A stretch of 64,000 nt of DNA from Nitrospirales bacterium. GTDB taxonomy: Bacteria; Nitrospirota; Nitrospiria; Nitrospirales; UBA8639. Positions 8,941-61,605 of the stretch are shown here, piece after piece (position 1 is the first letter of the stretch; each line of letters opens with the position of its first letter). The position numbers and the translations under genes are program-made. The notes under the pieces are model-generated. The model was given only the letters and a program-made list of their open reading frames with translations, was not told the origin of the DNA and searched no databases. Where the stretch lies: the NCBI GenBank assembly GCA_963555755.3, contig OY820905.2:4384001-4448000 (forward strand), given 5' to 3'.

Positions 8941-9062
8941 AGGGCTCGTTCAAAAAGGCCGTCCAGCAAGGCCGCAGGCCCGTTGGCGCGCGGAGCGTAC
9001 TCGGGTACGTGAGCACGACAACGGGCCGAGAACGCCGCTGGCGGACTTTTTGAACGGGCCCT
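8941..9062 (+). mobile_element. MITE family A
   Basis: TIR ...GTTCAAAAAG / CTTTTTGAAC...; core CAGCAAGGCCGC...GAGAACGCCGCTG; nine copies in window. Confidence 0.85.
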
Positions 9063-9074
9063 GAATAGGAGTGA

Positions 9075-9587
9075 ATGATGCCGTTAGATACTGAAGATGG
9101 AGCCAAAGCGTTACAACTGATTACCTCTCGTTATGATGCACGCGAATGGCGAAAGAAAATTGAAAAAACCTTGAGCCTACCACCGAAAGGCATGGAAGAT
9201 GACGTGCAGCGGAAAATTTTTTTGCATCTCAAGCTGGCGTTGCAAGCGTATAAATCACGACGTGCCGACGCCCCGGCTTGGGTGGTGGGCGGGTATGGCA
9301 CGAAAGAAGTCATTGATCGAGCCAAGCTTCGTCCCACGGAAATTGATCCCGCGATGACTCCAGATCAGGTGGCGTTTTTGGGGGAAGACCCTGGTTCTGA
9401 AGTTGATCAAACTTGGTGGGAAGACATGCTCGTGAAGTGGTTTGAAGAGCCTGAAGAAGAGGTGGTTGAAGCGGAAGCTTCTGATGAAGAAGGCGAAGAC
9501 GACGAAGAAGGGGAAGACGGTAAAGACGGTTCTGATACCGCTGCATCGGATTCGGATACATCCGAACCAACGAAAAAATCAACATAG
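9075..9587 (+). CDS. hypothetical protein with acidic C-terminal tail
   Basis: 170-aa ORF, AGGAG RBS. Confidence 0.85.
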   Translation: MMPLDTEDGAKALQLITSRYDAREWRKKIEKTLSLPPKGMEDDVQRKIFLHLKLALQAYKSRRADAPAWVVGGYGTKEVIDRAKLRPTEIDPAMTPDQVAFLGEDPGSEVDQTWWEDMLVKWFEEPEEEVVEAEASDEEGEDDEEGEDGKDGSDTAASDSDTSEPTKKST

Positions 9588-9751
9588 GAGTTTTGTGTCT
9601 CCCTGCCTTGTGCTCGCACGATGGGCTGGGCAATTTTTAGGTGGCTCTTTGCCTAATTGTGCGGGTACTTTTTTTTGAAGATTCCCACTCAACTTCCCCT
9701 TTCCCAAAGGGGGAGATATACAATACCCTCTCACCAATGCTTCTCCTTGAA

Positions 9752-11506
9752 CCTAGAAACCGCAGTTGGATCACAAAAGTCCGCGCAAGCTCTTAGGACC
9801 TGCGAGAAAATAACTTGATCAATCTCGCATCCAATCTTCGGGCCATCTTTGAACGGGCCTCAATCGAAAAACCCTCACCATAGCTGTGCTATGCCTCGAG
9901 TGTTTCGGATCATACAGAAATTATGGTTCTAGGAGTCGCATTCGGATCAATTGCCCAATGAGTGGCGTGAAGCTCAATCCTCGTTTTTCGAGTCCCGGCC
10001 ATTGCCGGTAGCCAAAGACAAAAGGCTCTTCGCGTCACCGGGAGGGTGAATGGGTTGAATAATTCCCCGCCTGTTCCCCCCTTGGGAAAAGGGGGGCTTG
10101 GGGGGATTTTCTGATCCGGAGCAGGCAAGTTCTGCACATTTCTTGCCTCCCACAAAGCGGGTTCCCCCGGCGTGGCTGCCGATCCAACCGAAGGGGCAAA
10201 GCGGGTGCCGGCACCAACGGCCCCCATCCTGACTCGGGGGCGGCCCTAGTCGCTCAGACAGTGCAAGCTTGGTGTGTGAGGGTATGGTTATCGTAAAATC
10301 CCCCCTCCCCCCCTTTTCCAAAGGGGGAGCCTCCCGAGCACCGCTTCCCAAGGGATGTTCTTCCATCACCTGCAGAGGAGAATCTGGCCAACCGACCGAT
10401 ACGGATTGATGAAGCCCCAGAAAAATCTAGAAACCCGGATGGCTCGCCCATGAGCTCCCTGGGGGTCTAGTGGCCACAGATGGGTCCTCTATTATTGGCA
10501 CGGGGTTCCTACAAAATTCATAGAGAACCATAAATTCTGTATGATCCAGTGTTTCCCAATCGTTCCGTCCAAATCCGACCCAAATCTTGGCGCGATATTG
10601 ATCAAGTTATTTTCTCGCAGGTCCTCAGGGTCCGTCACGAAATAACCGGGACAATTGGCCGAGACGATTTTGGAGCGAGCCAAGGAGCGAAGAGCGCGCA
10701 TACCGGGAGTATGGAAGCGATGAGCGACGCCGGCGCAGCCCAAAAGCGTCCGGCCCTCCGGGGAGGCCCATCTTTGGCCCGGGGCGGCGTTGCTCCTCGG
10801 TCACAGAGCCCCGCTAGGCTCCCTCGTCGCGCCTTGCCCCGATCACAAATCTGGGCCTCCCAATTGTCCCGGTTATTTCGTGACGGACCCTTAGCGCACC
10901 TGGCAAAATAAAAAATGTCTTATCACCACCAGGGATTACCCCCCACTCTTGTCATTTCGGGAATAAATGCCAAAAAGTGTTGGGAAAGTTACAAGGAAGT
11001 TCTTCGGTGACAACACGTTACCCTAGAAACGGCAGTTGGGCGCAAAAAAGCCGTGTAAGCTATTGGTGTGCATGGTGAAATAAAAAAAGTCGCAGTCACC
11101 TTCGTGGTGATGGGACATTTTTTTATTTTGCCAGGTGCGCCAAGAGCTTGCGCGGACTTTTGTGATCCAACTGCCGTTTCTAGGGTTACGCATCTTTGTG
11201 TTGAAAGGGTTTAACAAAGGGATGCGGTGATGAGAAAGATGACAGGTGCCTCTCACGCCAAAGTCTCATGAAGACGGCTCCTAATGCGTATTCTCGATGG
11301 TATGAGTATCTCCAACCAAGATTAAAAACCAACACTATTTGGCATTTATTCCCATTTCGACCCTTGGGAGAAATCTGTGGTTCGGCAGAAGGGAGATTTC
11401 TCCCAAGGGTCGAAATGACAGACCCGAGGTGACCACGACTTTTTTTATTTCACCATGCACACCAATAGCTTACACGGCTTTTTTGCGCCCAACTGCCGTT
11501 TCTAGG
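9752..11506. mobile_element. nested MITE stack B[C[N], D, I[J[B]]]
   Basis: Outer B flanked by TTGAA/TTAAA; C 9796-10624; N 9907-10547 (8-bp TSD AGTGTTTC); D 10628-10890; I ~10950-11420; J 10959-11353 (TSD ATTTC); inner B 11022-11184 (TSD GTTAC). Confidence 0.85.
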
Positions 11507-11569
11507 TTAAAGCGTTGAGTGAGGCGGAATATTCGTCAGGGGGGCAGGACCGGGGTGATCAGAATGGCC

Positions 11570-11906
11570 TATTGAATAATAGGCAAATCTTAAAAATTCC
11601 GTTCACCTGTGACTTATCTTATGAAATGCCGAGAGCAACAGGGGATGTTCAAAAAGGTGCGCTCAGCCAGATGGTCTCCAGGCTTCCCATCTGACTTTCC
11701 CAGGGGCTCTGCCCCTAGGACGGCCCAAACAGCAGGGCCTGTGACCCCTCGAAGGGGGAACACCCCCTTCGAACATCCCCCCCACCGAGTGGTACTGACT
11801 ACTCGGTGGGCAAGGCCGCAGGCGCTTTGGCGCGCGGAGCGTACGGGCGAGTACGTGAGCACGACAAAGGGCCGAGAACGCCGCTGACGCCCTTTTTCAA
11901 CATCCC
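11570..11906 (+). mobile_element. long-form MITE A carrying a multi-hairpin insert
   Basis: A leader plus A core interrupted at CAGC^AAGG by about 140 bp (11668-11810). Confidence 0.75.
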
Positions 11907-12515
11907 TTAGAAAAAATCCATTTGAACCGGTTTGGCCGTAGACGGCGAAGGCTGGCTGTCTTCTTTGGACATGTCATCCAGAATCTGTTTGAGCTTTTGA
12001 AAGTCTTCGCGGAGCGGGGTCATGAGATTTCCCTGGTGCAGGGCGGCGGCTGGATGCAATAAAGGGAAGAGAATAAAGTCGGACAACCGAAATATTTGGC
12101 CGCGAACTTTGGTAATTCCAATTTTTCTTTCCAGCAATGTCTGCATGGCAAAGTTTCCGAGCGAGCACACCAGCTTGGGTTTGATGATCTGAATCTGCTG
12201 AAGCAAAAATGGTTTGCAGGTCTCGATTTCATCCGCTTGGGGATTGCGGTTATTGGGAGGCCGGCATTTGATGACATTGGCAATGTAAATTTCGGCACGA
12301 GACAGTCCGACGGATTCGAGCAGTTCCGTCAATAACTTCCCCGCCGCCCCCACAAACGGAACTCCCTGTTTGTCTTCATAAAATCCCGGGGCTTCGCCCA
12401 CAAACATTATAGACGCGTGCGGATTGCCCGTTCCAAAGACAACCTGTGTGCGCCCTGATTCAAGCCGACAAGCCTGGCATTCGCGTAATGATTGATCTAA
12501 TTCATCGAGATTCAT
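11907..12515 (-). CDS. udg: uracil-DNA glycosylase, family 4
   Basis: CQACRL, VGEAPG, KCRPP and HPAA motifs. Confidence 0.95.
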   Translation of the reverse strand: MNLDELDQSLRECQACRLESGRTQVVFGTGNPHASIMFVGEAPGFYEDKQGVPFVGAAGKLLTELLESVGLSRAEIYIANVIKCRPPNNRNPQADEIETCKPFLLQQIQIIKPKLVCSLGNFAMQTLLERKIGITKVRGQIFRLSDFILFPLLHPAAALHQGNLMTPLREDFQKLKQILDDMSKEDSQPSPSTAKPVQMDFF

Positions 12516-12549
12516 AGAGTCGCATCATAGGAAGCGGAGTTTCGGGTTG

Positions 12550-13896
12550 TCAATGACGCTTGTACAACTGGTTGATCATGGTTTGTGCGCACATATTCCC
12601 ACTGGCGATGGCGCTTTCCATTTCGGTCGAGGCTCCCGTGTCCGTCCAACTTCCCGCGAGGAAAAAATTGCGGATCGGGGTTTGATTGGAAGGTCGGGAC
12701 CATTCGGTTCCCGGCATGTCGGGCACAAAACCCAATGGTTGCCGGACGATGTGATAGTGGTGGAGAAGCTCTGGGTTTAAAAACGTTTGATCTGGAAAGA
12801 CGTTTTGGAGAGTTTCAACCGCACAGGCTTTGATCCGTTCGTCCGTCTCTGAGAGGAAATCGGTGTCCCCAGTTGATACGCAGGAAAGCAGAGTGGCACG
12901 GCCCTGCGATGTGTGAGTCGGACGGCACAGCGTCCAGGAAAACCGGCCGTCATGAAGGATGAGTCGAGGTGTGTTGATCGTGTGGTCCGAGATCGCATTG
13001 AAGGTCATCCTAGGAGTAACGGTGGTGTGATTTATCTGATGAAAGGATGAATATCGGGCGAGTAAACGTTCGGGGAGAAACGAGGACAACGTCGTCGGGT
13101 GGACCGCCGCGATATACGAGTCAGCCGTGTAGAGGGTTCCGTTGGATGCACTGACGCCTGTGATCTGTTCTGTCCCAGCTTGGAGGAGTTCAATGGCTGG
13201 AATGCGATGAATGGTCATACCTTGTTGTTCGAGTTGTGTGATTAGGGATTTCACGAGCAAGGTTGAAAGTTGCGGTAAGGGAGTTATCCGCGGGCTGTGA
13301 TGTCGGGATTGGAAAAAGACACGGGTCAACATGGTTGTGAAATTGCCAGCACGAGTGTGCGAAAGGCTTGTTCCTATGAGAAATCGGCATAACGGATCCC
13401 AGATCATTTTTTGAACAGGATGGGTTTGCCCGATACTGGTCAGCCAGGATTCAGCAGATTGCAGATCCAGGGAGCTCGGCAGGACGGTTGCTCCCTCCCA
13501 CACTTTCTCCAGGTAATTGAGAAGGCGCCAACGCTGGCGATACGGAAGAGCCGAAAACGTTGAGATGCCCCACAGGGTATGCCACGGGGCTGGGAGGGGA
13601 GGGGTTGGAAATCGAGCGAGCGTTGAGGACGCGGTGTTACATTCAACAGATATCCGTTTCCAGTTTGATTCTTGTTTCGATATTCCCAAGTCTCGCAATA
13701 ACGAATCAGTATGTGTGTGAGGACCATACAAGACCAAAGGGTCTGACGTTTCATTCGGAGGGGTGGGGGAAACGGGTGTTTCGTGAAGGTTATTGTTCGT
13801 CTTGAGAATGGTGACTGTGAAATCAGCAGCACAAAGCTGCCAGGCTGTGACTAATCCCGCCAGCGTATCGCCGAGGATCAGAGCATGGGGTTTCAT
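12550..13896 (-). CDS. hpnE: HpnE-like FAD-dependent hydroxysqualene dehydroxylase
   Basis: LPAPWH and FLAGSWTDTG...MESAIASG motifs; overlaps hpnD by ATGA. Confidence 0.8.
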   Translation of the reverse strand: MKPHALILGDTLAGLVTAWQLCAADFTVTILKTNNNLHETPVSPTPPNETSDPLVLYGPHTHTDSLLRDLGISKQESNWKRISVECNTASSTLARFPTPPLPAPWHTLWGISTFSALPYRQRWRLLNYLEKVWEGATVLPSSLDLQSAESWLTSIGQTHPVQKMIWDPLCRFLIGTSLSHTRAGNFTTMLTRVFFQSRHHSPRITPLPQLSTLLVKSLITQLEQQGMTIHRIPAIELLQAGTEQITGVSASNGTLYTADSYIAAVHPTTLSSFLPERLLARYSSFHQINHTTVTPRMTFNAISDHTINTPRLILHDGRFSWTLCRPTHTSQGRATLLSCVSTGDTDFLSETDERIKACAVETLQNVFPDQTFLNPELLHHYHIVRQPLGFVPDMPGTEWSRPSNQTPIRNFFLAGSWTDTGASTEMESAIASGNMCAQTMINQLYKRH

Positions 13897-14783
13897 CGTC
13901 TCATGCTAAATCGATTAGTGAGTGAGGTGCGAAGCCAACTGCTGATGGCGATGAGAATGCGTAGGGGCGTGGATAAACTGATTCGAGATTCAAACACGGC
14001 GTAGTTGGAGTGTTGGATGCGAGTGAGAATTCGGAAATACACGCCGCGCATGATTTCTGCTGCGAGCAGGGATTGCCGATCGATTCGGGACAGGGTGTCA
14101 TAGATCGCTTGGGCTTTGTCGTAAAATGCATGGGCTCGGGTGGCTTCGAACTGCATGAGCTCAAGAAATTCTGATGAGTTCGTTTTCGCGAACAGTTGCT
14201 GCTCGGTGTACTTGAATCTCGCCAGATCTTCTTGTGGCAAATAAATACGCTGACGGTCGGCATCGGCTCCAACATCTCGTAAAATATTCGTGAGTTGAAA
14301 GGCGACTCCAAGGTTGATGGCATACTCCTGAGCCCGTGGGTCTTGGGTGCCAAATACCTTGAGACAGATCAATCCTACGATCGACGCGACACGATAACAG
14401 TAGGGATAGAGTTCATCGAAGGTGGCGTATCGTGTGTGCGTTAAATCCATTTCCATGCCGGTCACGAGTTCTTGCAGGTACTCTTCGGGGATCCCAAGCT
14501 GTTTGACATGGGCGGCTAAGCTTATGGTCACCGGGTATTGAGGGGTGCCCTGATAGACGGCCTTAATCTCCTGTCGCCACTGAGAGAGTTGCTCCTGGGG
14601 TTTCGTGCCTGGGGGCGGATCATCAACTGCATTATCGACTTCGTGGCAGAAGGTATACACGGTATACATGGCCTCCCGGCGGAATCGAGGGAGGAAGTAA
14701 AATGAATAATAGAAATTGCTTCCACTCGCTTTGGTCTTCGCGGTGCAATATGCGTGTGCTTCTTCAGCAGTCATGTGGGCCAT
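13893..14783 (-). CDS. hpnD: presqualene diphosphate synthase HpnD
   Basis: SGSNFYYSF, YCYRVASIVG and QLTNILRDVGAD motifs; start may be TTG 14789. Confidence 0.88.
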   Translation of the reverse strand: MAHMTAEEAHAYCTAKTKASGSNFYYSFYFLPRFRREAMYTVYTFCHEVDNAVDDPPPGTKPQEQLSQWRQEIKAVYQGTPQYPVTISLAAHVKQLGIPEEYLQELVTGMEMDLTHTRYATFDELYPYCYRVASIVGLICLKVFGTQDPRAQEYAINLGVAFQLTNILRDVGADADRQRIYLPQEDLARFKYTEQQLFAKTNSSEFLELMQFEATRAHAFYDKAQAIYDTLSRIDRQSLLAAEIMRGVYFRILTRIQHSNYAVFESRISLSTPLRILIAISSWLRTSLTNRFSMRR

Positions 14784-14790
14784 AGTCAAA

Positions 14791-15302: not shown

Positions 15303-15402
15303 TTAGTTCGTTGATTTTTGATCGGGGGGTTATTGCCCATACTCGGTTCGAGGATTGTAACGAAAGTTGTGGAGGGAGAAAAGACTTCTGGGAGCAGGGA
15401 TA

Positions 15403-16185: not shown

Positions 16186-16432
16186 GGGTGAAACCCTTCG
16201 TATGGGTTTGAGGGTGAGGCGTTGCCTATTGAGGTGGTTTCGCGTTTCGAAAAAACGTTTCCCATTGTCGATGACAATACGCGTAGGCCATACCACCCAT
16301 TCATATCATTCATCATGGGGCATGTCAATCAATGGGTGAGATCTGCGAGGCATCGTGTGTGATCCGCTTTCTGCAAAGAGTGATGTGTGTTGAGTCGAAG
16401 GGCATGATGAAATGGTGACTCGTGATGCGTAA

Positions 16433-18059: not shown

Positions 18060-18073
18060 TCGATTTAATTCTC

Positions 18074-21513: not shown

Positions 21514-21635
21514 GGAGGCTGTTGAAAAAGTCCGCCAGCGGCGTTCTCGGTCCGTTGTTGTGCTCACGTACTGGTGTACGCTCCGCGCACCAACGGCCCT
21601 GCGGCCTTGCTGGACAGCCTTTTTGAACAGCCTCC
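21514..21635 (-). mobile_element. MITE family A
   Basis: Reverse-complement copy with TIR GGAGGCTGTT.AAAAAG. Confidence 0.85.
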
Positions 21636-24000: not shown

Positions 24001-24507
24001 GAGCTTGTCAGAAATTAGCGATCGTCAGATCCCTTCTGTCATTTCGACCCTTGGGAGAAATCTCTCTGTTAGGGTTGGAATGCCTTGGCAGGTGTGGCAG
24101 GAACGGGGAGATTTCTCTCAAGGGTCGAAATGACAAAAGGAGGGGACCTCAAGGTTGCAGGAGCCTGTCCGAGATTAGCGGTCGTCATCTGGGGCTGGTT
24201 ACTAAAGGGCACCTCTACAAACCAGGCATTTTTTGTGAGGGCAAGGAAGCCGCGCGCGGAAAACCGGAGTGTATGGGCGAATACATGAGGATGTGAGCAC
24301 GCGACTGACGCCGCCATCACGGAAAAGGACGGTTTTTAGAGGTGCCCTAAGGGCTCGCGCAAGAATAACTTCCCATGTTTGGGTGTTGAGGCACCTGTCT
24401 GGCAAGGCGCGAGGACTGCGCATACTCCTCGTATGGAAAGGACGAGCAACGCCGTCAGACGGGATGGATCGACGCCCAAACATGGGAAGTTATTCTTGCG
24501 CGAGCCC
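24001..24507. mobile_element. repeat cluster: E ends, I, G and F
   Basis: E left ends at 24001 and 24162; I 24037-24134; G 24207-24347; F 24351-24507 with TSD TAA. Confidence 0.85.
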
Positions 24508-28289: not shown

Positions 28290-28295
28290 CACTAG

Positions 28296-28584
28296 GAGCC
28301 TGTCCGAGATTAGCGATCGTCACGAGGATGTGCTGGTTTGAGTCAGATATTTCGATCGTTTGAGGCGAATAGCTGGACTATTCAACGAAAACGGGGAAGG
28401 TTCAAAAAGGCCGTCCAGCAAGGCCGCAGGGCTTTTGGCGCGCGGAGCGTACATGGAGTACGTGAGCACGCCAAAAGCCTGAGAACGCAGCTGGCGGCCT
28501 TTTTCAACATTCCCCGAAAAGGATCGGAAAATCTGGCCAAATCCAACGCATCAGCAGTAGATCTGTCTAATCTTGGACAGGCTC
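28296..28584 (+). mobile_element. nested MITEs E[A]
   Basis: E TIR GAGCCTGTCC.AGATTAG; A 28392-28516 flanked by AAAA. Confidence 0.88.
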
Positions 28585-29087: not shown

Positions 29088-29280
29088 TGGGACGGTTGAA
29101 TAATTGAAAAAGTTTTCCTATTCACATGTGACCCATCTTATGAAACGCCAAGAACAACAGGGATGTTCAAAAAGGTGTGCTCAGCAAGGCCGCAGGCCCT
29201 TTGATGCGCGGAGCGTACTCATAGTCCGTGAGCACGACAAAGGGCTGAGAACGCCGCTGACGCCCTTTTTCAACATTCCC
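29088..29280 (+). mobile_element. long-form MITE A
   Basis: GGGACGGTTGAATAATT leader plus A core. Confidence 0.8.
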
Positions 29281-30911: not shown

Positions 30912-31109
30912 GGGACTGTTAAACAATTGAAATATTTTCATTATCCCGTCCGCATGTGATCCATTTCGTAAACTTCAAGAGCAAGAGGGGATGTTGAAAA
31001 AGGTGCGCTCAGCAAGGCCGCAGGCGCTTTGGCGCGCGGAGCGTACTCATAGTACGTGAGCACGACAAAGGGCCGAGAACGCCGCTGACGCCCTTTTCCA
31101 ACATTCCCC
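30912..31109 (+). mobile_element. long-form MITE A
   Basis: Same leader and core as 29088 and 36371. Confidence 0.8.
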
Positions 31110-33357: not shown

Positions 33358-34561
33358 GTTTGCATCACTCGTGGTTCCCCCGTTGGGCCAGGAAATCGGT
33401 GCGACGAACATCGGCGTTCGGGAACCGAGTCATGTGCGACCGCAAGACCTGGAGTTGGAGCTTCGGGCGAGCACGCTTGCCTTGGAATCAAAACTTCAGG
33501 AAAACGCCCGCTTGAAACAACAAGGTGAGGTGTTAATTGGAAATCTTGAAGTAGGAGTGATCGTCACGACTGCCACCGGCTGCGTGAGAGTTGCGAACAA
33601 AATGGCGGCGGATCTGCTGGGAACCACGCGAAAGAAAATGTTGGGTGTCCCGCTTGATCACATATGGGCTAGCAGTGGTTTGCCTGTGGTGCCGTGTTCC
33701 TCGATTCGGCATCACGACCGTTTTCTCACGTGTTATAACCAAGTCATCCCGACGTCAAGGCCTCGGGGAACAGGGGTGATCCGAATCATCAAAGACGTGA
33801 CTATGGTGGCGACGCTTCAGGATCAACTCGCCAATCAACAACGTCTAGCGGTTATGGGAGAAATGATTGGCACGATTGCCCATGAAATACGCAACCCCTT
33901 GGGGAGTATCGAATTATTTGCATCGTTGTTGGGTACGTCAATTCAAGATGATACCGAACGGCAAACATTGGCCAAGCAAATTACCACCGTGGTGCAAAGC
34001 CTTGACCAGGTGTTGTCCAATCTCTTGGTCATGACGAAGAACCTGACTCCCAATATTCGAGACGTGAGTCTCGATTCGATGGTTCATGATGTCATCATGA
34101 TGGGCATGCACGTGATTCGGGAACGGTCGATTTCGGTGTGCGAGGACCTTCGTACGTCGCCGCGAATGGTCTGTGTGGATGAACCCCTCTTGAAACAGGC
34201 CTTGCTGAATCTGCTTCTGAACGCGATCCAAGCTTCACTGGAAAACGGGGTGGTTGAGATTTCGAGTCGATGGGCGCCTATCGACTCCTCTCCTCAGGGT
34301 TTGCCCGGGCTGAAGGCTGGCATGCTGGGTCGAGAAGCGGTGGTCCTGAGTGTGCGAGACTCCGGGTGTGGAATACGAGAAGAAGATCAGGAACGCATGT
34401 TTGAGCCATTTTTCTCGAAGCGAAGAGGGGGGACGGGTTTAGGATTAGCCATTGTACGCCAGATTATGGACGTCCATCAGGGATGGGTGGAATGGACCAG
34501 TACACCGGGAGAAGGAACGACCATGACGTTGTGGGTTCCTCAAGGGCTCGCGCAAAAATAG
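33338..34561 (+). CDS. PAS sensor histidine kinase (FleS/FlrB-like)
   Basis: IAHEIRNPLG, NLLLNAIQA, DSGCGI and GTGLGL motifs; GTG start after AAGGAG. Confidence 0.92.
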   Translation: MRKTKSRFASLVVPPLGQEIGATNIGVREPSHVRPQDLELELRASTLALESKLQENARLKQQGEVLIGNLEVGVIVTTATGCVRVANKMAADLLGTTRKKMLGVPLDHIWASSGLPVVPCSSIRHHDRFLTCYNQVIPTSRPRGTGVIRIIKDVTMVATLQDQLANQQRLAVMGEMIGTIAHEIRNPLGSIELFASLLGTSIQDDTERQTLAKQITTVVQSLDQVLSNLLVMTKNLTPNIRDVSLDSMVHDVIMMGMHVIRERSISVCEDLRTSPRMVCVDEPLLKQALLNLLLNAIQASLENGVVEISSRWAPIDSSPQGLPGLKAGMLGREAVVLSVRDSGCGIREEDQERMFEPFFSKRRGGTGLGLAIVRQIMDVHQGWVEWTSTPGEGTTMTLWVPQGLAQK

Positions 34562-34700
34562 CTTCCCCTGTTTGGGCGTCGATCCATCCCGTCTGGCGGC
34601 GTTGCTCCTCCTTTCCATACGAGGAGTATGCGCAGTCCTCGCGCTTTGCCAGACAGGTGTCTCAGCACCCAAACAGGGAAAGTTATTCTTGCGCGAACCC
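34544..34700. mobile_element. MITE family F (157 bp)
   Basis: TIR GGG.TCGCGCAA.AATA; TSD CAA. Confidence 0.9.
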
Positions 34701-36082: not shown

Positions 36083-36204
36083 CCAGGTGTTGAAAAAGGC
36101 CGCCAGCGGCGTTCTCGGGAATTTGCCGTGCTCACGTACTGCTGTACGCTCCGCGCGCCAAATCCCCTGCGGCCTTGCTGGACGGACCTTTTTGAACACC
36201 TGGC
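36082..36204 (-). mobile_element. MITE family A
   Basis: TIR GCCAGGTGTT.AAAAAGG. Confidence 0.85.
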
Positions 36205-36370: not shown

Positions 36371-36590
36371 GGGACCGTTGAATAATGGAAACTTTTTCAT
36401 AATGCCGTTCACAGGTGGCTCATCTTATGAAACGCCAAGAGCAAGAGGGGATGTTCAAAAAGGTGCGTTCAGCAAGGCCGCAGGCCCTTTGACGCGCGGA
36501 GCGTACTCATAGTACGTGAGCACGACAAAGGGCTGAGAACGCCGCTGACGCCCCCCCGCCTCCGCGGGGGCATGCTTTTTCAACATTCCC
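36371..36590 (+). mobile_element. long-form MITE A in the flgB leader
   Basis: TGGTAG direct repeat at 36365-36370 and 36591-36596. Confidence 0.85.
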
Positions 36591-37566: not shown

Positions 37567-37699
37567 CAGACGTGATGCGTGAAGCGTGATCCGTGAAGCG
37601 TAGGGGGGGACGATTTTCCTATATTTACGCATCACGCATTACGTATCACGGGTCACGATTTTTGAACAACCACTGTTGCTATGAAGACGAGGAGTTTCC

Positions 37700-38005
37700 A
37701 TGGATGATCTCACAATTCGAGGGTTTGAATCGCTGGCCGGAATTAATGAGCGTGGGGTGGTCACACCTGGTCGGCAAGTAGAGTCACAAGGTTTTGTGGA
37801 GTTATTGAAAGGCGCAATCGACAATGTGAATCAGATTCAGCATGAGTCGGGACGCCTGCAAGGTGCTGTGGCGCGTGGTGAAAACATGAACATTCATCAA
37901 GCCATCATCGCCGGCGAAAAGGCTGGATTGTCATTTCAGTTGATGATGCAAGTGCGAAACAAACTGCTTGATGCGTATCGAGAAGTATCACGATTACAGC
38001 TCTAG
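37700..38005 (+). CDS. fliE: flagellar hook-basal body protein FliE
   Basis: QVRNKLLDAYREV motif. Confidence 0.95.
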   Translation: MDDLTIRGFESLAGINERGVVTPGRQVESQGFVELLKGAIDNVNQIQHESGRLQGAVARGENMNIHQAIIAGEKAGLSFQLMMQVRNKLLDAYREVSRLQL

Positions 38006-38164
38006 GCGTGAAGGGTGAAGGGTGAAGCGTAACAAACTTGTCGCCCCTCATTAGTTTACTCATCACTCATTACCCTTTACGCATGACATGCTTGAACAAT
38101 GAAGAATAAACACTTTTCGGTACTCATCACGCATTACGTATTACGAACAAGGTAAATTCAAACG

Positions 38165-47892: not shown

Positions 47893-48033
47893 GGGCACTT
47901 CTACAAACCGTCCTTTTCCGTGATGGCGGCGTCAGCCGCGTGCTCATATCCTCATGTATTCGCCCATACACTCCGGTTTTCCGCGCTCGGCTTCCTTGCC
48001 CTCACAAAAAATGCCTGGTTTGTAGAGGTGCCC
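47893..48033. mobile_element. MITE family G (141 bp)
   Basis: TIR GGGCAC.TCTACAAACC; other copies at 24207 and 61465. Confidence 0.88.
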
Positions 48034-48179: not shown

Positions 48180-49061
48180 CCGAGAAATGGCAGTTGGGCG
48201 CAAAAAAGCTGTGTAAGATATTGCTGTGCATGGTGAAATACAAAAAGTCGTGGTCACCCTAGGGTTCGCGCAAGAATACCTCCCCCGGTTTGGGCGTCGA
48301 TCCATCCTGTTTGGCGGCGTTGCTCGTCCTTTCCATACGAGGAGTATGCGCAGTCCTCGCGCCTTGCCAGACAGGTGTCTCAGCACCCAACCAGGAGAAG
48401 GTATTCTTGCGCGAACCCTTAGTGGTGATGAGACCTTTTTGTATTTTGCGAGGAGCCTGTCCGAGATTAGCGATCGTGACGAGGGGGGGCTGGTTTGAGT
48501 CAGATGTTTCGATCGTTTGAGGCGAATAGTGGTGACTATTTAACGAAAACGGGGAATGTTCAAAAAGGCCATCCAGCAAGGCCGCAGGGGTTTTGGCGCG
48601 CGGAGCGTACACGGAGTACGTGAGCACGCCAAAAGCCCGAGAACGCAGCTGGGGGCCTTTTTCAACATTCCCCGAAAAGGATCGAAAGATCTGGCCAAAT
48701 CCAGCGCACCCGCAGTAGATCGGTCTAATCTTGGACAGGCTCCTTGGTGCGCTTAGGGTCCGTCACGAAATAACCGGGACAATTGGGAGGCCCAGATTTG
48801 TGATCGGGGCAAGGCGCGACGAGGGAGCAGAGCGGGGCTCTGTGACCGAGGAGCAACGCCGCCCCGGGCCAAAGATGGGCCTCCCCGGAGGGCCGGACGC
48901 TTTTGGGCTCCGCCGGCGTCGCTCATCGCTTCCATACTCCCGGTATGCGCGCTCTTCGCTCCTTGGCTCGCTCCAAAATCGTCTCGGCCAATTGTCCCGG
49001 TTATTTCTCGCAGGTCCTAAGAGCTTGCGCGGACTTTTGTGATCCAACTGCCATTTCTAGG
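48180..49061. mobile_element. nested MITE stack B[F, E[A], D/C chimera]
   Basis: B TSD TTGAA; F 48262-48418; E 48453-48742; A 48550-48674; D/C 48756-49017. Confidence 0.88.
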
Positions 49062-51150: not shown

Positions 51151-51334
51151 GAGCAGGACGGAGGGGGGAAATGAAGAGTGAAAAATGAAAAATGAAAAAT
51201 GAAGAGTGAAAAATGAAAAATGAAGAGTGAAAAATGAAAAATTATTACCTTTCGGTACGCATTACGTATCACGCTTCACGTATAAGGATGTCGAATTATT
51301 CAACAGTCCCAATCATTGTGAATGAGGAGAAGCT

Positions 51335-51754
51335 ATGAGTGATGAAGTCGAGGATGTGGATGTCACCGGAGAAGCCAGTGAGATGGTAGAGGCGGATGAG
51401 GGTGAGGGTGAGGGAGGTGGCAAGGTCATCAAAGCCACAGGGACAAAGCCGACAAAAAACGGAAAGGGTGCCTCCAAGTATCCCAACGTGGAATTCGAAA
51501 AGATGGAACGGATTCTCGACATCCCCCTGGTCTTATCCGCCCAGTTGGGTTCGTCTCGGATGTTGGTAAAGGAATTGCTCCAACTTGGTCCGGGGTCGGT
51601 GGTGGAGTTGGATAAGCTGGCTGGCGAACCGTTAGAGGTGTTGGTCAATGACAAGTTGGTGGCCCGAGGGGAAGTCGTCATGGTGAACGACAAGTTTGGC
51701 GTACGATTGACAGATGTTGTCAGCCCGACTGAACGGGTTCAGAAACTGCGATAG
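51335..51754 (+). CDS. fliN: flagellar motor switch protein FliN
   Basis: ILDIPL...GSVVELDKLAGEP..ARGEVV motif. Confidence 0.96.
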   Translation: MSDEVEDVDVTGEASEMVEADEGEGEGGGKVIKATGTKPTKNGKGASKYPNVEFEKMERILDIPLVLSAQLGSSRMLVKELLQLGPGSVVELDKLAGEPLEVLVNDKLVARGEVVMVNDKFGVRLTDVVSPTERVQKLR

Positions 51755-51906
51755 AAAGAACGTGAAGCGTCATGCGTGAAGCGTAAAGCGTATAAGAACA
51801 AGAATAATGAAAATCAAGGAAGACGGACAAAAGGTCATGGTGATTTATTCTTCACGCATGACGCATGACGCATGACGCATCACAATCTAAGAATAACGAG
51901 GGAAGA

Positions 51907-53558: not shown

Positions 53559-54288
53559 GGACCTGAGAGAAAATACCTTGGACATCTCGCATCCAAAACA
53601 TAGCTGTACTATGCCTCGGGTGTTTTTCAACCTAGAAACAGCAGTTGGATCACAAAAGTCCGCACAAGCTCTCAGGGTCCGTCACGAAATAACCGGGACA
53701 ATTGGCCGAGACGATTTTGGAGCGAGGCAAGGAGCGAAGAGCGCGCATACCGGGAGTATGGAAGCGATGAGCGACGCCGGCGGAGCCCAAAAGCGTCCGG
53801 CCCTCCGGGGAGGCCCATCTTTGGCCCGGGGCGGCGTTGCTCCTCGGTCACAGAGCCCCGCTCTGCTCCCTCGTCGCGCCTTGCCCCGATCACAAATCTG
53901 GGCCTCCCAATTGTCCCGGTTATTTCGTGACGGACCCTTAGCGCACCTGATAAAAGACAAAAAGGTCTCATCACCACTAAGGGTTCGCGCAACAATAACT
54001 TTCCCTGTTTGGGTGCTGAGACACCTGTCTGGCAAGGCGCGAGGACTGCGCATACTCCTCGTATGGAAAGGACGAGCAACGCCGCCAGACGGGATGGATC
54101 GACGCCCAAACAGGGAAAATTATTGTTGCGCGAGCCCTAAGGTGACCACGACGTTTTGTCTTTCACCATGCACCCCAATAGCTCGCACGGCTTTTTTGCG
54201 CCCAACTGCAGTTTCTAGGTCCAATCGTTCCGTCCAAATCCAACCCAAATCTTGGCGCGATATGTCCAAGGTATTTTCTCTCAGGTCC
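53559..54288. mobile_element. nested MITE stack C[B[D,F]]
   Basis: B 53631-54219 (TTCAA/TCCAA); D 53675-53937; F 53981-54137 (TSD TAA). Confidence 0.88.
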
Positions 54289-54292
54289 TCTC

Positions 54293-56153: not shown

Positions 56154-56158
56154 GCAGG

Positions 56159-58258
56159 ATGGCGACCTCAACGACGATGACACAAGAAGGCACCCCTCTC
56201 GGGTCGTATAGCGATTTCTTGTTGCCGTTGGGCGTCATTGGCATGTTGATGTTGATGCTTCTCCCGATCCCGCCGGTGCTCCTCGATTTGTGTCTGTCGT
56301 TCAGCATTACCCTGTCGATTCTTATATTGCTGGTGACGATGCATGCGAGACGTCCGATTGATTTTTCCGTGTTTCCTTCAGTCCTGTTGTTGGTGACGCT
56401 CTTTCGGTTAGGCCTGAATATTGCGTCAACGCGTGTCATTCTCCTCAATGGCCATGAGGGCATTGGCGCAGCCGGCGAAGTCATTAAATCGTTTGGGGGG
56501 GTTGTTGTCGGTGGCAATTTTGCAGTGGGAATCGTGGTGTTTTCCATCTTAGTGATCATCAATTTCATTGTGATCACGAAAGGGGCTGGCCGAATCGCGG
56601 AAGTGGCCGCGCGGTTTACGTTGGATGCCATGCCTGGAAAGCAGATGAGCATTGACGCGGATCTCAATGCCGGACTGATCGATGAGGCCACGGCTCGTCG
56701 TCGTCGTGAAGATATTGCCGAAGAAGCCGATTTTTATGGGGCCATGGATGGTGCGAGTAAATTCGTTCGTGGTGATGCGATCGCCGCCATTATTATTATC
56801 CTGATCAACATCGTAGGTGGGTTGGCGATTGGGGTGCTGGAACACGGCATGCCGTTAGCCGAGGCGGCTCGTACTTTTACCCTTCTGACTGTGGGTGATG
56901 CTCTGGTGGGACAGATTCCGGCCCTCATTATTTCAACCGCTGCCGGTATCATCATCACACGAGCCGCCTCATCTGCAAATTTAGGAGAGCAAATCACCAA
57001 CCAAATTCTGGTCAACCCCAATTTGATTGGTATGGTAGCCGGCATTCTTTTCCTATTGGGACTCACTCCTGGCCTACCACATTTTGCCTTCTTGCTGGTA
57101 GGGAGCCTGGTTGCTGGGCTGGCCTATTTTCTTAAAGATCAACAGAAAAAGATGGCTGACACAGAGAAAGCCGCGGTTCCTGCCAAAGGTGAGGAAGCCG
57201 CGAAAACGGATGCCCTCGACGTCGTGACATCCCCTGACTTACTTGAACTTCATGTGGGGTATGGGCTGGTTCCGTTGGTGGATGTCGCACAGGGGGGGGA
57301 GCTTCTTGAGCGCATTCGCGGGATTCGCCGGCAGACTGGCCAGGAGCTGGGTTTGGTCGTTCCGCCCGTGCATATTCGGGATAACCTTCAGCTGCGGCCC
57401 AACGAATACAGCATCATGTTGAAAGGGGTGCAGGTGGCCAAAGGCGAAGTCGTGCCGAGGCATTTGCTGGCCATTAATCCGGGTCAGGCCACGGGTGATT
57501 TGGAAGGGAAGCCGACACAAGATCCGTGCTTTGGGCTACCGGCACTTTGGATTTCGACCCAAAACAAAGAGAAGGCTCAGGTCGAAGGGTATACGGTTGT
57601 CGATTGTGGCTCGGTGATTGCAACACATCTGACTGAAATCATTCGAGCAAATGCTCATGACCTGATTGGGCGTCAAGAGGTACAGAGTTTGCTAGACAAT
57701 ATTGCGAAGACTCATCCCAAGGTTGTGGATGATTTAATCCCCACCTTGTTGCCACTGGGAAGTGTGGTGAGAATTTTACGAAATCTTCTGAAAGAGCGGG
57801 TGTCTATTCGTGATTTGCGCACGATTCTCGAAAGCGTGGCGGATTATGCCCCACAGGTGAAAGACCCTGAAACCTTGACGGATTATGCACGGCAAAGTGT
57901 GGGTCGGACCATCACCAGTCAATTCACCAACCCGGACGGGTTGCTCCCGGTGATCAGTTTAGATCCGGCTCTAGACCGACGGTTGGTTGACGCCCTGCGG
58001 CCAAGTCCGACAGGGGAAGTCCAGTCTATGAGCCCACCCTTCGTGAATGCGTTCCTGGAAGGCGTGCGTCGTGCCATTGAACGCGTCATTTCTCGAGGTT
58101 ATCAACCCGTGTTGCTCTGCTCTCATGGAATTCGGGCCCAGGTGTATCGCCTGGTGGCACCGGGTGTTCAGGCATTGACGGTGTTATCCCCGAATGAGAT
58201 TGACGTCAAAGCCAAAATTCAAGCCATTGAAGTGGTGAGGATTCCAGATGAAGCTTAA
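56159..58258 (+). CDS. flhA: flagellar export protein FlhA
   Basis: RFTLDAMPGKQMSIDADL and GAMDGASKFV motifs. Confidence 0.97.
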   Translation: MATSTTMTQEGTPLGSYSDFLLPLGVIGMLMLMLLPIPPVLLDLCLSFSITLSILILLVTMHARRPIDFSVFPSVLLLVTLFRLGLNIASTRVILLNGHEGIGAAGEVIKSFGGVVVGGNFAVGIVVFSILVIINFIVITKGAGRIAEVAARFTLDAMPGKQMSIDADLNAGLIDEATARRRREDIAEEADFYGAMDGASKFVRGDAIAAIIIILINIVGGLAIGVLEHGMPLAEAARTFTLLTVGDALVGQIPALIISTAAGIIITRAASSANLGEQITNQILVNPNLIGMVAGILFLLGLTPGLPHFAFLLVGSLVAGLAYFLKDQQKKMADTEKAAVPAKGEEAAKTDALDVVTSPDLLELHVGYGLVPLVDVAQGGELLERIRGIRRQTGQELGLVVPPVHIRDNLQLRPNEYSIMLKGVQVAKGEVVPRHLLAINPGQATGDLEGKPTQDPCFGLPALWISTQNKEKAQVEGYTVVDCGSVIATHLTEIIRANAHDLIGRQEVQSLLDNIAKTHPKVVDDLIPTLLPLGSVVRILRNLLKERVSIRDLRTILESVADYAPQVKDPETLTDYARQSVGRTITSQFTNPDGLLPVISLDPALDRRLVDALRPSPTGEVQSMSPPFVNAFLEGVRRAIERVISRGYQPVLLCSHGIRAQVYRLVAPGVQALTVLSPNEIDVKAKIQAIEVVRIPDEA

Positions 58259-59597
58259 ACGATTTGAAGCATTAACTCTTCAGGAAGCATTTTTCGCCGT
58301 GAAAGCCGAATTGGGCTCGGATGCCGTGATCGTCTCGACCCGGCGTATCAATAAAGGTGGAGGTTTTCTTGGGTTGCTCAGTCAACCCATGATTGAAGTC
58401 ACGGCTGCGGTTGATCGAGGGGTGGTGGCCAAAGAACCTGCCAAAGAACTTGCCAAAGAACCTGATCATCGCCAACGCCGGTCACAGGAAACAGTGATGC
58501 CAACCGTTGAACCGGAAACGGTTTCGTCGTGGTATGAACCCCCCATCGAAGCCCAGCAGAGGCAGGCCCCCTCTTTTGGTGAACATCTGAAAGTGGCGGC
58601 GTTACTCGACCCGGTAAGCCAACAGCTCGCCGCCCTCCGTGAGGAAATGAAAGAGTTACGAAGTGTACGGTCTGAGGCCGATACCGGAATTGGTCCCCTT
58701 CGTCAGGAACTCGAAACGTTCCGCACGTTCATGGGAGACATGCTGGCGGATCGGGCATCACAACGGTTGGCTTCGCTTCCGAAAGATCTGAGGGCCTACC
58801 ATGAAGTCCTCGTGACTGCAGGAATTACCCCTTCCCTGGCTGCCAATCTTGTGCGGACGGTTGGGGAAACCCTCGGAACAGGGGAGGGCATTCGGGACGA
58901 AACCGTGGCGGAATTATTGCGGGAGCAAATGGAGAAGGCCATTTCGGTGTCCGGTCCTTTGGCGACACCTGGCGGTTTGCAAAAAGTCGTCATGCTCGTG
59001 GGGCCTACTGGAGTCGGGAAAACCACGACCATTGCTAAACTCGCCAGTCAGTTCACGCAAGGACCCATGCGGATGAAAACTGTCGTGGTGACATTGGATA
59101 CGTATCGAGTGGCCGCTGTCGAACAACTTCGAGTCTATGCTCGAATCTTGAAAGTTCCCGTTGAAGTAGCCGTGACACCAGAGGAATTGCCGGCTTGCGT
59201 GGCTCGGCATCCGGATGCCGGGTTGGTGCTGGTTGATACGGCTGGCCGCAGTCCGCGTGATCCGGCAGGGGCACGAGAACTGGCGGCGATTGCGGAACAA
59301 AAAATGGCACTCGAAACCCATTTAGTGCTGTCTGCGCCCACAGACTTGGCCGTGCAAGAAGATATTGTGCGTCGGTATAGCAGCATCCCCGTGCATCGAT
59401 TGTTGCTCACAAAACTCGATGAAATGCCCCAATTGGGCCGCTTATTCAATTTGATTCATCAAACCGGGCTTCCGCTGTCGTATCTGTCCATGGGACAACG
59501 GGTTCCAGAAGATTTGGAACAAGCGACGCGAAAATCCATCGTGGATCGAATCGACCTGTTTTCCGCATGGGAGCAGGTGTCAGCGAAAGTCGCGTAA
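58248..59597 (+). CDS. flhF: SRP-type GTPase FlhF
   Basis: GPTGVGKTTTIAKLA, DTAG, TKLDE and GQRVPED motifs. Confidence 0.95.
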   Translation: MKLKRFEALTLQEAFFAVKAELGSDAVIVSTRRINKGGGFLGLLSQPMIEVTAAVDRGVVAKEPAKELAKEPDHRQRRSQETVMPTVEPETVSSWYEPPIEAQQRQAPSFGEHLKVAALLDPVSQQLAALREEMKELRSVRSEADTGIGPLRQELETFRTFMGDMLADRASQRLASLPKDLRAYHEVLVTAGITPSLAANLVRTVGETLGTGEGIRDETVAELLREQMEKAISVSGPLATPGGLQKVVMLVGPTGVGKTTTIAKLASQFTQGPMRMKTVVVTLDTYRVAAVEQLRVYARILKVPVEVAVTPEELPACVARHPDAGLVLVDTAGRSPRDPAGARELAAIAEQKMALETHLVLSAPTDLAVQEDIVRRYSSIPVHRLLLTKLDEMPQLGRLFNLIHQTGLPLSYLSMGQRVPEDLEQATRKSIVDRIDLFSAWEQVSAKVA

Positions 59598-59727
59598 TGC
59601 GTGAAGCGTGAAGCGTCATGCGTGAAGGGTAAAGGGAGAAACACTGTGGTATCTTTTTTTACGCATGACGCATGACGCATCACGCATGACGCATCACGCA
59701 TGACGCATCACGCATGACGCATCACGA
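59592..59727. repeat. inverted heptamer arrays (GCGTGAA ... ACGCATC/ACGCATG)
   Basis: Same type at ~37570-37658, 38005-38146, 42737-42820, 51761-51883 and 53155-53278. Confidence 0.9.
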
Positions 59728-59772
59728 CTTCGCAGTGAGTACATCAACGTTTGATTTATAAGGACACACACC

Positions 59773-60654
59773 ATGATCCCCCAGATTGATCAAGCGAGCG
59801 GGCTACGAGCACGAGCGAGTGCTCAACCAACCCTTCCCCCAGTCCAAGTCATCGCGGTGAGCTCGGGGAAAGGAGGAGTCGGGAAAACCAATATTGTCGC
59901 CAACATTGCCGTGGCCGGAGCGAAACAGGGTACGCGCGTCATGATCATGGATGCGGATCTGGCGCTGGGGAATCTCGATGTGCTGCTTGGTCTCACACCT
60001 GTCTATTCGTTAGAAGATGTCATCGCGGGCCGACAGACATTGGAAGAGATTGTGGTGGAAGGGCCGGCGGGGGTGCAGATTCTTCCGGCCACGTCAGGGG
60101 TACAAGATCTGACGGCCTTAAGTCGAGACCAACAACTTCATCTGCAAACACAATTTTTGAATTTGGCTACCCCGCCAGAATTGCTGCTGATTGATTGTGC
60201 CGCCGGCATTTCCGCGAATGTTCTCTATTTTAGCCTGGTGGCCCATGAAGTCCTCGTGGTGGTCACCCCGGAACCGACATCCCTCACGGATGCGTATGCC
60301 TTGATTAAGGTTTTATCCACTCGCTACCGACAAAAACGTTTTAGAATTTTGATCAACATGGCGAAACAGGTTCGTGAGGCCAAGGACGTCTTTCGGAAAT
60401 TGAGTAAGGTGACGGACCGATTTCTGAGCCTCTCATTGGATTTCGCCGGATGGGTACCCTTGGATGACCATTTGCCCATGGCCGTGTGCCAGCAACGAGC
60501 GGTCGTGGAAGCTTTTCCCAAGGCCCCGTCGAGTCGTGCGTTGTCGGACCTCATGGCGACGTTGCTTGGATGGCGATCGGATCATCCCATGGATGGCGGG
60601 CTCCAGCTATTTGGCCCATCGGTTCTTTGGACACCCACACAGGAAGGAGCGTGA
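59773..60654 (+). CDS. flhG: MinD-like ATPase FlhG/FleN
   Basis: SGKGGVGKT, DADLALGN and PEPTSLTDAYALIK motifs. Confidence 0.94.
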   Translation: MIPQIDQASGLRARASAQPTLPPVQVIAVSSGKGGVGKTNIVANIAVAGAKQGTRVMIMDADLALGNLDVLLGLTPVYSLEDVIAGRQTLEEIVVEGPAGVQILPATSGVQDLTALSRDQQLHLQTQFLNLATPPELLLIDCAAGISANVLYFSLVAHEVLVVVTPEPTSLTDAYALIKVLSTRYRQKRFRILINMAKQVREAKDVFRKLSKVTDRFLSLSLDFAGWVPLDDHLPMAVCQQRAVVEAFPKAPSSRALSDLMATLLGWRSDHPMDGGLQLFGPSVLWTPTQEGA

Positions 60655-60660
60655 GGGACT

Positions 60661-61458
60661 ATGAAATCTACTGTCTCGGAAGCCCAAGCCCAGCAGAGGA
60701 TTCACGCTCGGTTTAAGACGGGAGAAGCCGCCAAATCCGTTGGTATTCGCGGAGAAGAACGGGAAGGGATGATCAAGGATTTTGTGCCGGTCATTAAGTA
60801 TATGGCCCTTCGCTTGGCCATGCGTGTTCCGGCGGGCTTAAATGTTGAGGACCTGATTAGCGCAGGAACCGTCGGGCTTTTAGATGCCCTCAGCAAGTAT
60901 GATCCTGGACGGGAAGTGAAGTTTCGGACCTATGCGGAATTTCGTATTCGTGGCGCGATGCTTGATGAAATGCGTGCGATGGACTGGGTGCCTCGGTCGG
61001 TTCGTGAACGCATGGGTCGCATCCAACATGCCGCCAATGAATTTACCAAGCGAAAAGGTCGAACGCCGACCGAACAGGAGCTGGCTACGGAATTAGGGGT
61101 TGATGCCAAAGAAGTGGATGACACGCTGCTGCAAGCCAAAGGGGCCGTCGTATTAAGCCTCGATGATTTGGGCACCTCGGACGATGACGCCCATTCCATT
61201 TTGGATGCCCTGGCTGATACGGAGCAACCAAGTCCTCTTGAATCCTTGTTGTCCGAAGATACCAGAAAAGTGCTCGCCGATGCGATTGATCGACTGCCAG
61301 AGCGGCAACGATTGGTTCTGACGCTCTATTATTTTGAAGAACTGACTATGAAAGAAGTGGGGACGTTGTTGAACGTGACGGAATCCCGCATTTGCCAATT
61401 ACATGCGCAGGCTATGGTCCGGCTTAAAGCTCAACTTAGTACTAAACTGTCTCGTTAA
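60661..61458 (+). CDS. fliA: RNA polymerase sigma-28
   Basis: RIRGAMLDEMRAMDWVPRS and ELTMKEVG..LNVTESRICQ motifs. Confidence 0.96.
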   Translation: MKSTVSEAQAQQRIHARFKTGEAAKSVGIRGEEREGMIKDFVPVIKYMALRLAMRVPAGLNVEDLISAGTVGLLDALSKYDPGREVKFRTYAEFRIRGAMLDEMRAMDWVPRSVRERMGRIQHAANEFTKRKGRTPTEQELATELGVDAKEVDDTLLQAKGAVVLSLDDLGTSDDDAHSILDALADTEQPSPLESLLSEDTRKVLADAIDRLPERQRLVLTLYYFEELTMKEVGTLLNVTESRICQLHAQAMVRLKAQLSTKLSR

Positions 61459-61464
61459 AGATAC

Positions 61465-61605
61465 GGGCACCTCTACAAACCGTCCTTTTCCGTGATGGCG
61501 GCGTCAGCCGCGTGCTCACATCCTCATGTATTCGCCCATACACTCCGGTTTTCCGCGCACGGCTTCCTTGCCCTCACAAAAAATGCCTGGTTTTTAGAGG
61601 TGCCC
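61465..61605. mobile_element. MITE family G
   Basis: Near-identical to 47893-48033. Confidence 0.88.

Follow-up and report, generated by a model that had tools for sequence, protein, structure and literature searches.

A conserved internal core shared by miniature elements with unrelated ends in a Nitrospirales genome and by ERIC, RPE-1 and Correia-type repeats

Introduction

For decades, ERIC, RPE-1 and Correia elements have been regarded as distinct repeats, each specific to its lineage and of unknown origin, and the literature consulted likewise handles ERIC, RPE and Correia as separate families (PMC2229807, PMC3184786, PMC10969869, PMC2267715, PMC11602168, PMC2759123, PMC3733652, PMC2996986, PMC2700814, PMC7812874). 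[quoted passage not shown] Here we analyse 64,000 nucleotides of a Nitrospirales genome (contig OY820905.2, positions 4,384,001 to 4,448,000; hereafter the window), for which an original prediction, made from the sequence alone, had proposed that four MITE families (A, D, F and G) carry one structured internal core between different terminal inverted repeats.

The core is real, widespread and tied to known repeats, and it is not peculiar to this genome. A core shared by ERIC, RPE-1 and Correia elements implies one ancestry or one function. The elements are of a known kind; the shared core and the apparent selection on it are undescribed in the literature searched. A full-text literature search that did not cover the original ERIC, RPE, CIR and Correia papers found no paper uniting these repeats by an internal motif, and no sequence match was found in the 13 files searched of Geobacter supplements, whose figures may be images.

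Results

A common core in four MITE families of the window

A covariance model (R1) was built from an alignment (A1) of 66 loci from other genomes, among which A- and G-like relatives were present and F and D types absent. Run on the window with a limit of E<0.05, R1 identified 19 copies (Table 1), all of them on a single strand: nine of A, three of G, four of F and three of D, with A and G copies scoring 43–67 bits and F and D copies 18–27 bits. The proposal that the four families combine different inverted ends with a common internal core is borne out. The A and G cores are present in the window, and so are the F core at 54028–54089 and the D core at 48807–48866, the quotation of the latter having begun one base earlier. 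The second core that had been noticed in the other arm of family D is also real: it lies on the opposite strand and, at 10680–10733 (+), shows the exact short-form geometry described below (R1 E 0.13). By chance, both basal halves of the core fall in register in 83–130 of 20000 shuffles per family consensus.

Fold and covariation

In alignment A1, 82% of cells pair and covariation amounts to 0.53, as compared to 0.17 after shuffling (0/500) and at most 0.18 with slid partners; these values still contain the relatedness of the loci, and the search pattern itself dictated some of the apical stem. Ranking by mutual information places the nested helix pairs first. The earlier observation that stem sequences differ yet pair, with loop residues kept, is upheld. 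In the apical internal loop, G[G/C]AG faces UGA, and the loop is bounded by a pair that covaries (z 16) and by a G.U.

The basal region had been drawn as a stem with a bulged AA and GGCG/CGCC pairing, a drawing that suits F and D only. Across the 66 loci, the GGCG/CGCC pairs do not covary (z 0.0 and −0.1). The position after AAGG and the first base of the 3′ half do covary in a non-Watson–Crick swap, being C.A in 53 and A.G in 11 of the 66 loci (z 6.7), and the A.G type comes from Bacillota, Gammaproteobacteria and Desulfovibrio, among others. A second swap, from A.C to G.A, is weaker (z 2.7). As the C.A/A.G swap covaries and the GGCG/CGCC pairs do not, the drawing that suits the basal element best is an internal loop with CAAGG[C/A] facing [A/G]ACG[C/A]NG, in which one fixed G-C pair would lie between tandem non-standard pairs. 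Folding of G, of one A copy and of the second core of D predicts the same basal loop.

The core exists in two lengths. In the long form, the spacing between basal and apical elements is 19/18 nt (17–19 nt in 170 of ~209 unsearched 3′ matches); in the short form, found in F, D and the second core of D, it is 9/8 nt. Short forms share a GA-N-GA/GA-N′-GA stretch whose middle pair is G-C, C-G or A-T. Mismatches on the motif strand are purine-purine in 188 cases vs. pyrimidine in 67.

At gathering score, no Rfam family matched the window, a set of 20 loci or a set of 10 loci, and none covers the core there; the best match on the core among the 20 loci was to sX9, in antisense and below threshold (E 0.02). 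A kink-turn, in which tandem G.A and A.G pairs come after a bulge of three nucleotides, was rejected: the tandem pairs and a UGAG strand are present, but the bulge comprises one base.

Distribution among bacteria

GTDB genomes were searched with a pattern comprising the 5′ half and the apical hairpin, leaving out the 3′ basal half. This search gave at least 120 loci, and titles among the matches listed came from nine phyla (Pseudomonadota, Bacillota, Bacteroidota with Chlorobi, Nitrospirota, Desulfobacterota, Myxococcota, Acidobacteriota, Planctomycetota and Spirochaetota), with none of the 120 listed titled archaea, actinobacteria or cyanobacteria. The unsearched 3′ half was found in the expected place in 68 of 113 listed loci with full flanks, as compared to 1/113 mirrored and 32/659 distant windows. 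Both basal anchors were present in 71 listed loci, 51 of which lie between inverted ends, of many kinds; 66 entered A1, the others being two over-long loci, one near-duplicate, one short locus and one from Rickettsia. R1 matches 52 of the 53 remaining tested loci, which the same search pattern underlies. Positive genomes numbered 24/61 in the own phylum and 17/41 in a Bacillales sample, viral contigs yielded only 7 matches, and near-identical A copies occur in Nitrospira and Nitrospirales records.

These data bear on a neutral account, in which the core is the relic of one old MITE lineage, with covariation produced by copying of one arm onto the other, and loop fixity by ascertainment and recent bursts. 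Arm copying is real: distinct double changes number 24 in F and 35 in A (12 of each in single copies), the outer bases of A are variable yet complementary, and one F copy has its inverted left arm as right arm. Moreover, the 5′ half and the apical motif belonged to the search pattern. Arm-to-arm copying can explain stem covariation but does not account for unpaired loops that survive, as it would erase them; the loops persist while stems are saturated across nine phyla. Also at odds with a relic are the retention of the unsearched 3′ half and of the 17–19 nt spacing, and the recovery of ERIC from outside the training set. We consider this account quite improbable.

Ends, target duplications and transposases

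A pattern catalogue of the 4.6-Mb genome contains about 540 cores, of which 248 belong to A, 135 to F, 112 to G, 40 to D and 9 to H. The families are 121–263 bp long, lack a transposase gene (in the window they overlap spurious frames only) and are bounded by terminal inverted repeats that differ between families. Target duplications likewise differ: 4 bp in 84/104 copies of G (141 bp), a 3-bp TNA in 63/117 copies of F (157 bp), and 8 bp in H (exact in 2/9, 7 of 8 bases in 3/9). Family D (263 bp) occupies one site inside another repeat, so that its duplication result (8/35) refers to one nested site; a clear duplication is absent from A (~121 bp). Both filled and empty nested sites were observed, as was a relative (G065) without a copy behind the upstream gene that precedes the G element at 61465–61605 in the window. 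Being short and non-coding, with inverted ends and target duplications, the elements are MITEs.

The 14-bp ends of H are those of a 2413-bp insertion sequence (IS) of the IS66 type, of which 10 of the 11 listed copies have an exact 8-bp duplication. Ends of another family, K, are common to an IS1182 element, and those of A resemble, without matching, the ends of an IS5-family element. None of these partners carries the core at its ends. As the ends match IS of different families that lack it, the core can be seen as a passenger between the ends of unrelated transposase families, and transposases supplied in trans probably move the elements. Among G-ended elements, 115 have the basal loop and 3 are short and coreless. 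Between F, G or D ends, no transposase was found in this genome except in secondary insertions, and a plasmid search with one G copy gave no match. Of the earlier idea of a conserved module with changing ends, the covarying single-strand module stands, set between unrelated ends of which two or more match coreless autonomous IS (IS66 and IS1182); the basal fold as first drawn does not.

An autonomous core-bearing element was sought; the one IS with the core at its end proved to be an IS110 inserted into family A. This IS110 (NF033542; G000:C1, L008, L002: 1893342, 1138011) uses a single CT target site within the hairpin module of an A variant, with 12/12 left ends in the CT target and 72 empty targets in existence; its upstream non-coding end has 8-base matches to target and donor, reminiscent of a bridge RNA. 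Other insertions touch the core as well. In a G element at 2350503–2351998 (L368), a 1.35-kb cargo splits the apical loop, the 4-bp duplication lying outside, and contains a frame of 229 aa that matched neither Pfam nor NCBIfam. At 2332331–2333548 (L367), an IS630-like element (identified by eye) takes the place of the F core; here, the left arm recurs in inverted orientation as the right arm, which is a vestige of arm copying. The core also has fixed points at which small hairpin modules insert (L360–L365 in G064, G065 and G072; window 36553–36576), and G elements of relatives contain a 42-nt module directly after the apical loop. The IS66 partner of H (L001, 311099–313498) has a second gene with a Druantia DruA domain (PF14236).

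Variation among copies

A collection made solely by the arms of the elements (117 copies of G, 148 of F, 37 of D and 121 of A) revealed variants present in at least 5% of copies at 0/48 basal sites vs. 49/286 other interior sites (p 0.0006), with rare changes being equally dense in both (0.79 basal and 0.72 per site). A table of private versus shared variants gives odds of 3.5 (p 0.0001). Variants shared by at least three copies favor G.U over A.C on the motif strand (22 vs. 9), as compared to 25 vs. 28 for private ones. This pattern suggests that intact loops may be important when new copies are produced rather than while a copy resides in the genome.

Orientation and transcription

Orientation counts were based on crude gene calls. 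In this genome, no steady bias to replichore or to co-oriented genes was seen, the leading strand carrying 109/248 A, 71/135 F, 57/112 G and 12/40 D cores. Upstream of gene starts, G lies in sense in 22 vs. 6 cases, in one of many tests. For A, a called stop codon precedes the right end by 0–5 nt in 40/216 copies, as compared to 2/216 for the left end and a background of 0.44%; as the right end follows stop codons, it is the non-motif strand that is read there. All three kinds of stop codon occur at these ends, e.g. at 21514–21635 and 36083–36203 in the window. Elements were found in two RNA libraries, for which assembled contigs alone were used, and no joint skipping a single element was seen in those contigs.

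A marked orientation is found in Bacillales. Four Bacillaceae genomes, chosen for an rRNA- or tRNA-linked match, have 27 of their 30 best loci in such operons, and 17 of 25 further loci of the order (11 genomes) lie in operons for rRNA, tRNA or transfer-messenger RNA (tmRNA). Thus, 44/55 loci are located in stable-RNA operons, and in 44/44 the motif strand is transcribed. The sites are of six kinds (16S leader, before 23S, 23S–5S spacer, after 5S, tRNA-Asp/Phe spacer and before tmRNA); as the copies are kin, six is a fair number of independent observations. This orientation ties the fold to transcription and is compatible with RNA or a displaced DNA strand alike; selection against a pyrimidine-rich opposite strand could also yield it. 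Among these loci (L372–L426), two cores lie inside a broken second 5S copy (L406, L409) and some form head-to-tail pairs. A weak group I intron match (L402:874-1145; E 9e-06, below gathering score) was seen at the 3′ end of a Bacillales tmRNA.

The core might act on the host, or on its behalf, as a signal for RNA processing or tolerance, kept in stable-RNA spacers and with no role in mobility, so that the insertion would be tolerated in the transcript or marked for a nuclease. The 44/44 sense copies and the one-sided placement of A after stop codons fit such a role, and orientation-dependent effects of ERIC involving RNase E and cleavage of Correia elements by RNase III are reported (PMC2229807, PMC10969869). 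However, in resident copies the loops and the other sites decay equally fast, roughly half of the copies that lie between co-oriented genes carry the motif on the strand that is not transcribed, and the nuclease sites reported in PMC10969869 lie in terminal repeats rather than in the core. On balance, we find a pure processing signal unlikely.

Discussion

A possible role in mobility

We tentatively favor a reading in which these MITEs are moved by several DDE transposases, and in which the core, folded on a single strand that is probably RNA, would attach to a conserved host protein and so favor donor activity. DDE transposases of several IS families likely mobilize the elements in trans via their 14–19 bp ends. 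When the motif strand is transcribed, the core would most likely fold as RNA into its two internal loops and would bind a putative host protein conserved across bacteria, thereby raising the chance that the copy acts as donor. New ends may be captured from IS elements and then copied to the other arm, and selection on the loops presumably acts at the amplification step.

The same fold might instead operate as single-stranded DNA, on a displaced non-template strand, in a fork gap or as the arm of a cruciform. In that case, tandem G.A pairs would snap the strand into a hairpin that joins the ends or binds a nucleoid protein, and aids the transposase on a substrate of 120–160 bp. Several data accord with this: selection appears at amplification, which is a DNA event; long and short form differ by exactly 10 nt per arm; the motif strand is more stable with DNA parameters also, for G, F and D; the sense strand of an rRNA operon is the displaced DNA strand too; family D has one core per strand; and the apical hairpin loops are free, without an excess of RNA tetraloops (GNRA 1/50, UNCG 0/50). 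Conversely, DNA-stable GNA triloops are equally missing (0/15), neither leading nor lagging strand is preferred in this genome, and the C.A/A.G swap is of a kind known from RNA sheared pairs. A DNA fold is in our view rather doubtful.

Several observations weigh against the mobility reading with an RNA core. To begin with, the selection signal rests on family A: without it, the comparison of basal with other interior sites drops to 0/36 vs. 19/218 (p 0.085) and the private-versus-shared table to p 0.14, and a clade-based split of inherited and recurrent variants showed no signal (p 0.78), pointing the opposite way in F. The core is also dispensable for movement, since IS66-type ends enclose 8 coreless heptamer elements vs. 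8 with the core, and no partner IS was found in this genome for F, G or D. As to transcription, F, G and D have no steady orientation to genes here, the model does not explain the orientation of A after stop codons, and the Bacillales copies are both kin and represented by five members in the training set. Finally, the apical loops lack an excess of RNA tetraloops, and the 3′ basal half is altered in 7 of 12 ERIC copies of E. coli K-12.

A broader form of the preferred reading is possible, and we hold it a little more loosely: what truly replicates in ERIC, RPE-1, Correia and many hundreds of bacterial MITEs without a name would be a single structured module of RNA (or single-stranded DNA), recruiting a widespread host protein, boosting whichever transposase its ends attract, swapping ends between IS families, and having been taken into rRNA and tRNA precursors of Bacillales. 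If true, such a transposase-independent enhancer would be a general tool as well as a general driver of bacterial repeat expansion. The analysis names ~20 bases as mutation targets and opens two old questions to tests in E. coli K-12, namely by what means repeats of the ERIC type move and to what their hairpin binds.

Copies in the window and neighboring repeats

Nested or abutting MITEs occur at fixed sites (window 10628–11200, 24207–24507, 28292–28584, 48180–49061 and 53671–54289): A lies inside K, both D and F lie inside a family of 173 bp, and G adjoins F. These composites recur genome-wide. Heptamer arrays occupy 7003–7121, 37573–38151, 51172–51897, 59588–59725 and other places in the window. 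Elsewhere in the genome, they are found inside IS66-type ends or replace the apical part of A, the basal loop staying. The genome as a whole has very many IS families and group II intron-like repeats, and a 186-bp repeat family of another type (~38 copies) is without the core.

Table 1. Core-bearing MITEs and partial cores in the window (positions are those of the window; core strand given where it differs within an element).
Feature	Position	Strand	Core	Remarks
Family A MITE	8941–9062	+	long core 8966–9038	
Family A MITE	11641–11906	+	11810–11884	left arm with unrelated ~140 bp insert
Family A MITE	21514–21635	−	21538–21610	
Family A MITE	28394–28514	+	28418–28491	nested in family K MITE (28292–28584)
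Family A MITE	29159–29280	+	29184–29257	
Family A MITE	30987–31108	+	31012–31085	
Family A MITE	36083–36203	−	36106–36178	
Family A MITE	36447–36590	+	36472–36545	right arm with small GC hairpin insert
Family A MITE	48552–48672	+	48576–48649	nested in family K MITE
Family G MITE	24207–24347	+	long core 24241–24314	141 bp; 4-bp target duplication; A.G basal-loop variant
Family G MITE	47893–48033	−	47926–47999	
Family G MITE	61465–61605	−	61498–61571	
Family F MITE	24351–24507	+	short core, R1 match 24394–24463	157 bp; 3-bp TNA duplication
Family F MITE	34544–34700	−	R1 match 34588–34657	
Family F MITE	48262–48418	−	48314–48367	
Family F MITE	53981–54137	+	54032–54085	
Family D MITE	10628–10890	−	core 1 10784–10837 (−), core 2 10680–10733 (+)	263 bp
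Family D MITE	48756–49019	+	core 1 48809–48862 (+), core 2 48913–48966 (−)	recombined right end
Family D MITE	53675–53937	−	core 1 53831–53884 (−), core 2 53727–53780 (+)	
Family K MITE, basal loop	15096–15124	+		basal loop alone, closing short hairpin; R1 E 0.36
Family K MITE, basal loop	28361–28388			basal loop alone
Family K MITE, basal loop	44055–44083			basal loop alone
Family K MITE, basal loop	48518–48546			basal loop alone
Family I MITE (186 bp), apical loop	14866–14893	+		variant apical loop without basal loop; read by eye, outside R1 scoring
Family I, apical loop	16508–16535			variant apical loop, second copy; read by eye

Comparison with known repeats

The original prediction could assign the core to no named family. 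That part did not hold: ERIC, RPE-1 and Correia-type elements all carry it. For ERIC (also IRU or RU-1; 127 bp, from enterobacteria), which was absent from the training set, twelve copies of E. coli K-12 were collected by primer alone; R1 matches 12/12 on the primer strand and nothing else in the 36 kb. They share the apical loop (12/12), the 5′ basal half (11/12) and, in 5/12, the full 3′ half in register (9 by a looser count). Spacing is 21/20 in ERIC, vs. 19/18 or 9/8 in the window families, and the stems have no match in primary sequence. ERIC also has different ends and a TA target (PMC2229807). The window families, differing in ends, lengths and duplications, do not correspond to the 127-bp ERIC sequence with TA termini, but they do possess an ERIC-type internal hairpin with its apical and basal loops.

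In E. coli K-12, R1 matched 9 places, the top two of which match ERIC primers; six others are copies of a second repeat, in which the apical motif alone is shared. This six-copy repeat (L132–L137) combines the apical motif with another basal region and might be the RSA repeat. RU-2/YPAL and RU-3 were excluded by comparison with the sequences printed in PMC2759123.

For RPE-1 (TIGR01045), three Rickettsia loci pass the cut-off at 56–72 bits and score 44–54 bits with R1, a model built without Rickettsia. The apical motif is identical to that of the core. RPE-1 is set apart by its different ends, by a variant of the basal loop and by its many insertions in frame within coding sequence, whereas the window families are intergenic. 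Two G copies, the 2 matches in this genome, match TIGR01045 weakly (20–21 bits, below the 30-bit cut-off).

Correia-type elements (Correia or NEMIS elements being repeats of Neisseria) of 106–107 and 155–157 bp have TATAG ends and both basal halves. For the contigs of a viral collection, this label rests on sizes and on the ends, the latter compared with the Correia end motif. Of 16 such loci, six copies of 106–107 bp score 19–23 bits with R1, comparable to short-form F and D, a 69-bp one 17 bits and the 155-bp form 10–12 bits. They have different ends, a TA target and no G[G/C]AG × UGA apical loop, the basal loop being all that is held in common; the window families, in turn, differ in their ends from the Correia terminal repeat with its 107- or 155-bp body. 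The sizes used are those in PMC2229807.

A more limited likeness concerns REP sequences with their RAYT. E. coli K-12 contains 184 short hairpins (e.g. L353), vs. 17 for a control, in which a short loop is flanked by the same eleven letters as in the two basal halves; these hairpins are probably REPs. The REP, sharing those eleven letters, is a hairpin of 35–40 bp without inverted transposon ends or duplications, and its pairing register differs. By analogy with REPs, the basal loop could be what an HUH nuclease (Y1, RAYT-like) acts upon in carrying the core from one element to another; in addition to the 184 hairpins, the insertion of small hairpin modules at fixed core points would be in line with this. 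Yet the flanks pair two bases off the REP fold, cores are not enriched near Y1 genes (3/17 vs. 3.9 expected), no gene family recurs beside 133 metagenome and viral loci (80 longer than 1.5 kb), and duplications follow the ends rather than the core. Even though RAYT cleavage of REPs needs unpaired AA/GC residues, as stated in PMC3733652, we rate an HUH substrate as very improbable.

With MITEs in general (IS66-, IS1182- and IS5-related), these families share shortness, lack of coding capacity, inverted ends, duplications and, in H and K, ends common to an autonomous IS. They depart from the usual picture, in effect reversing it: the ends turn over, and the interior is the conserved part rather than the remnant of a partner IS. 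The window families fall outside each of the named families, yet the core on which they are built is the same.

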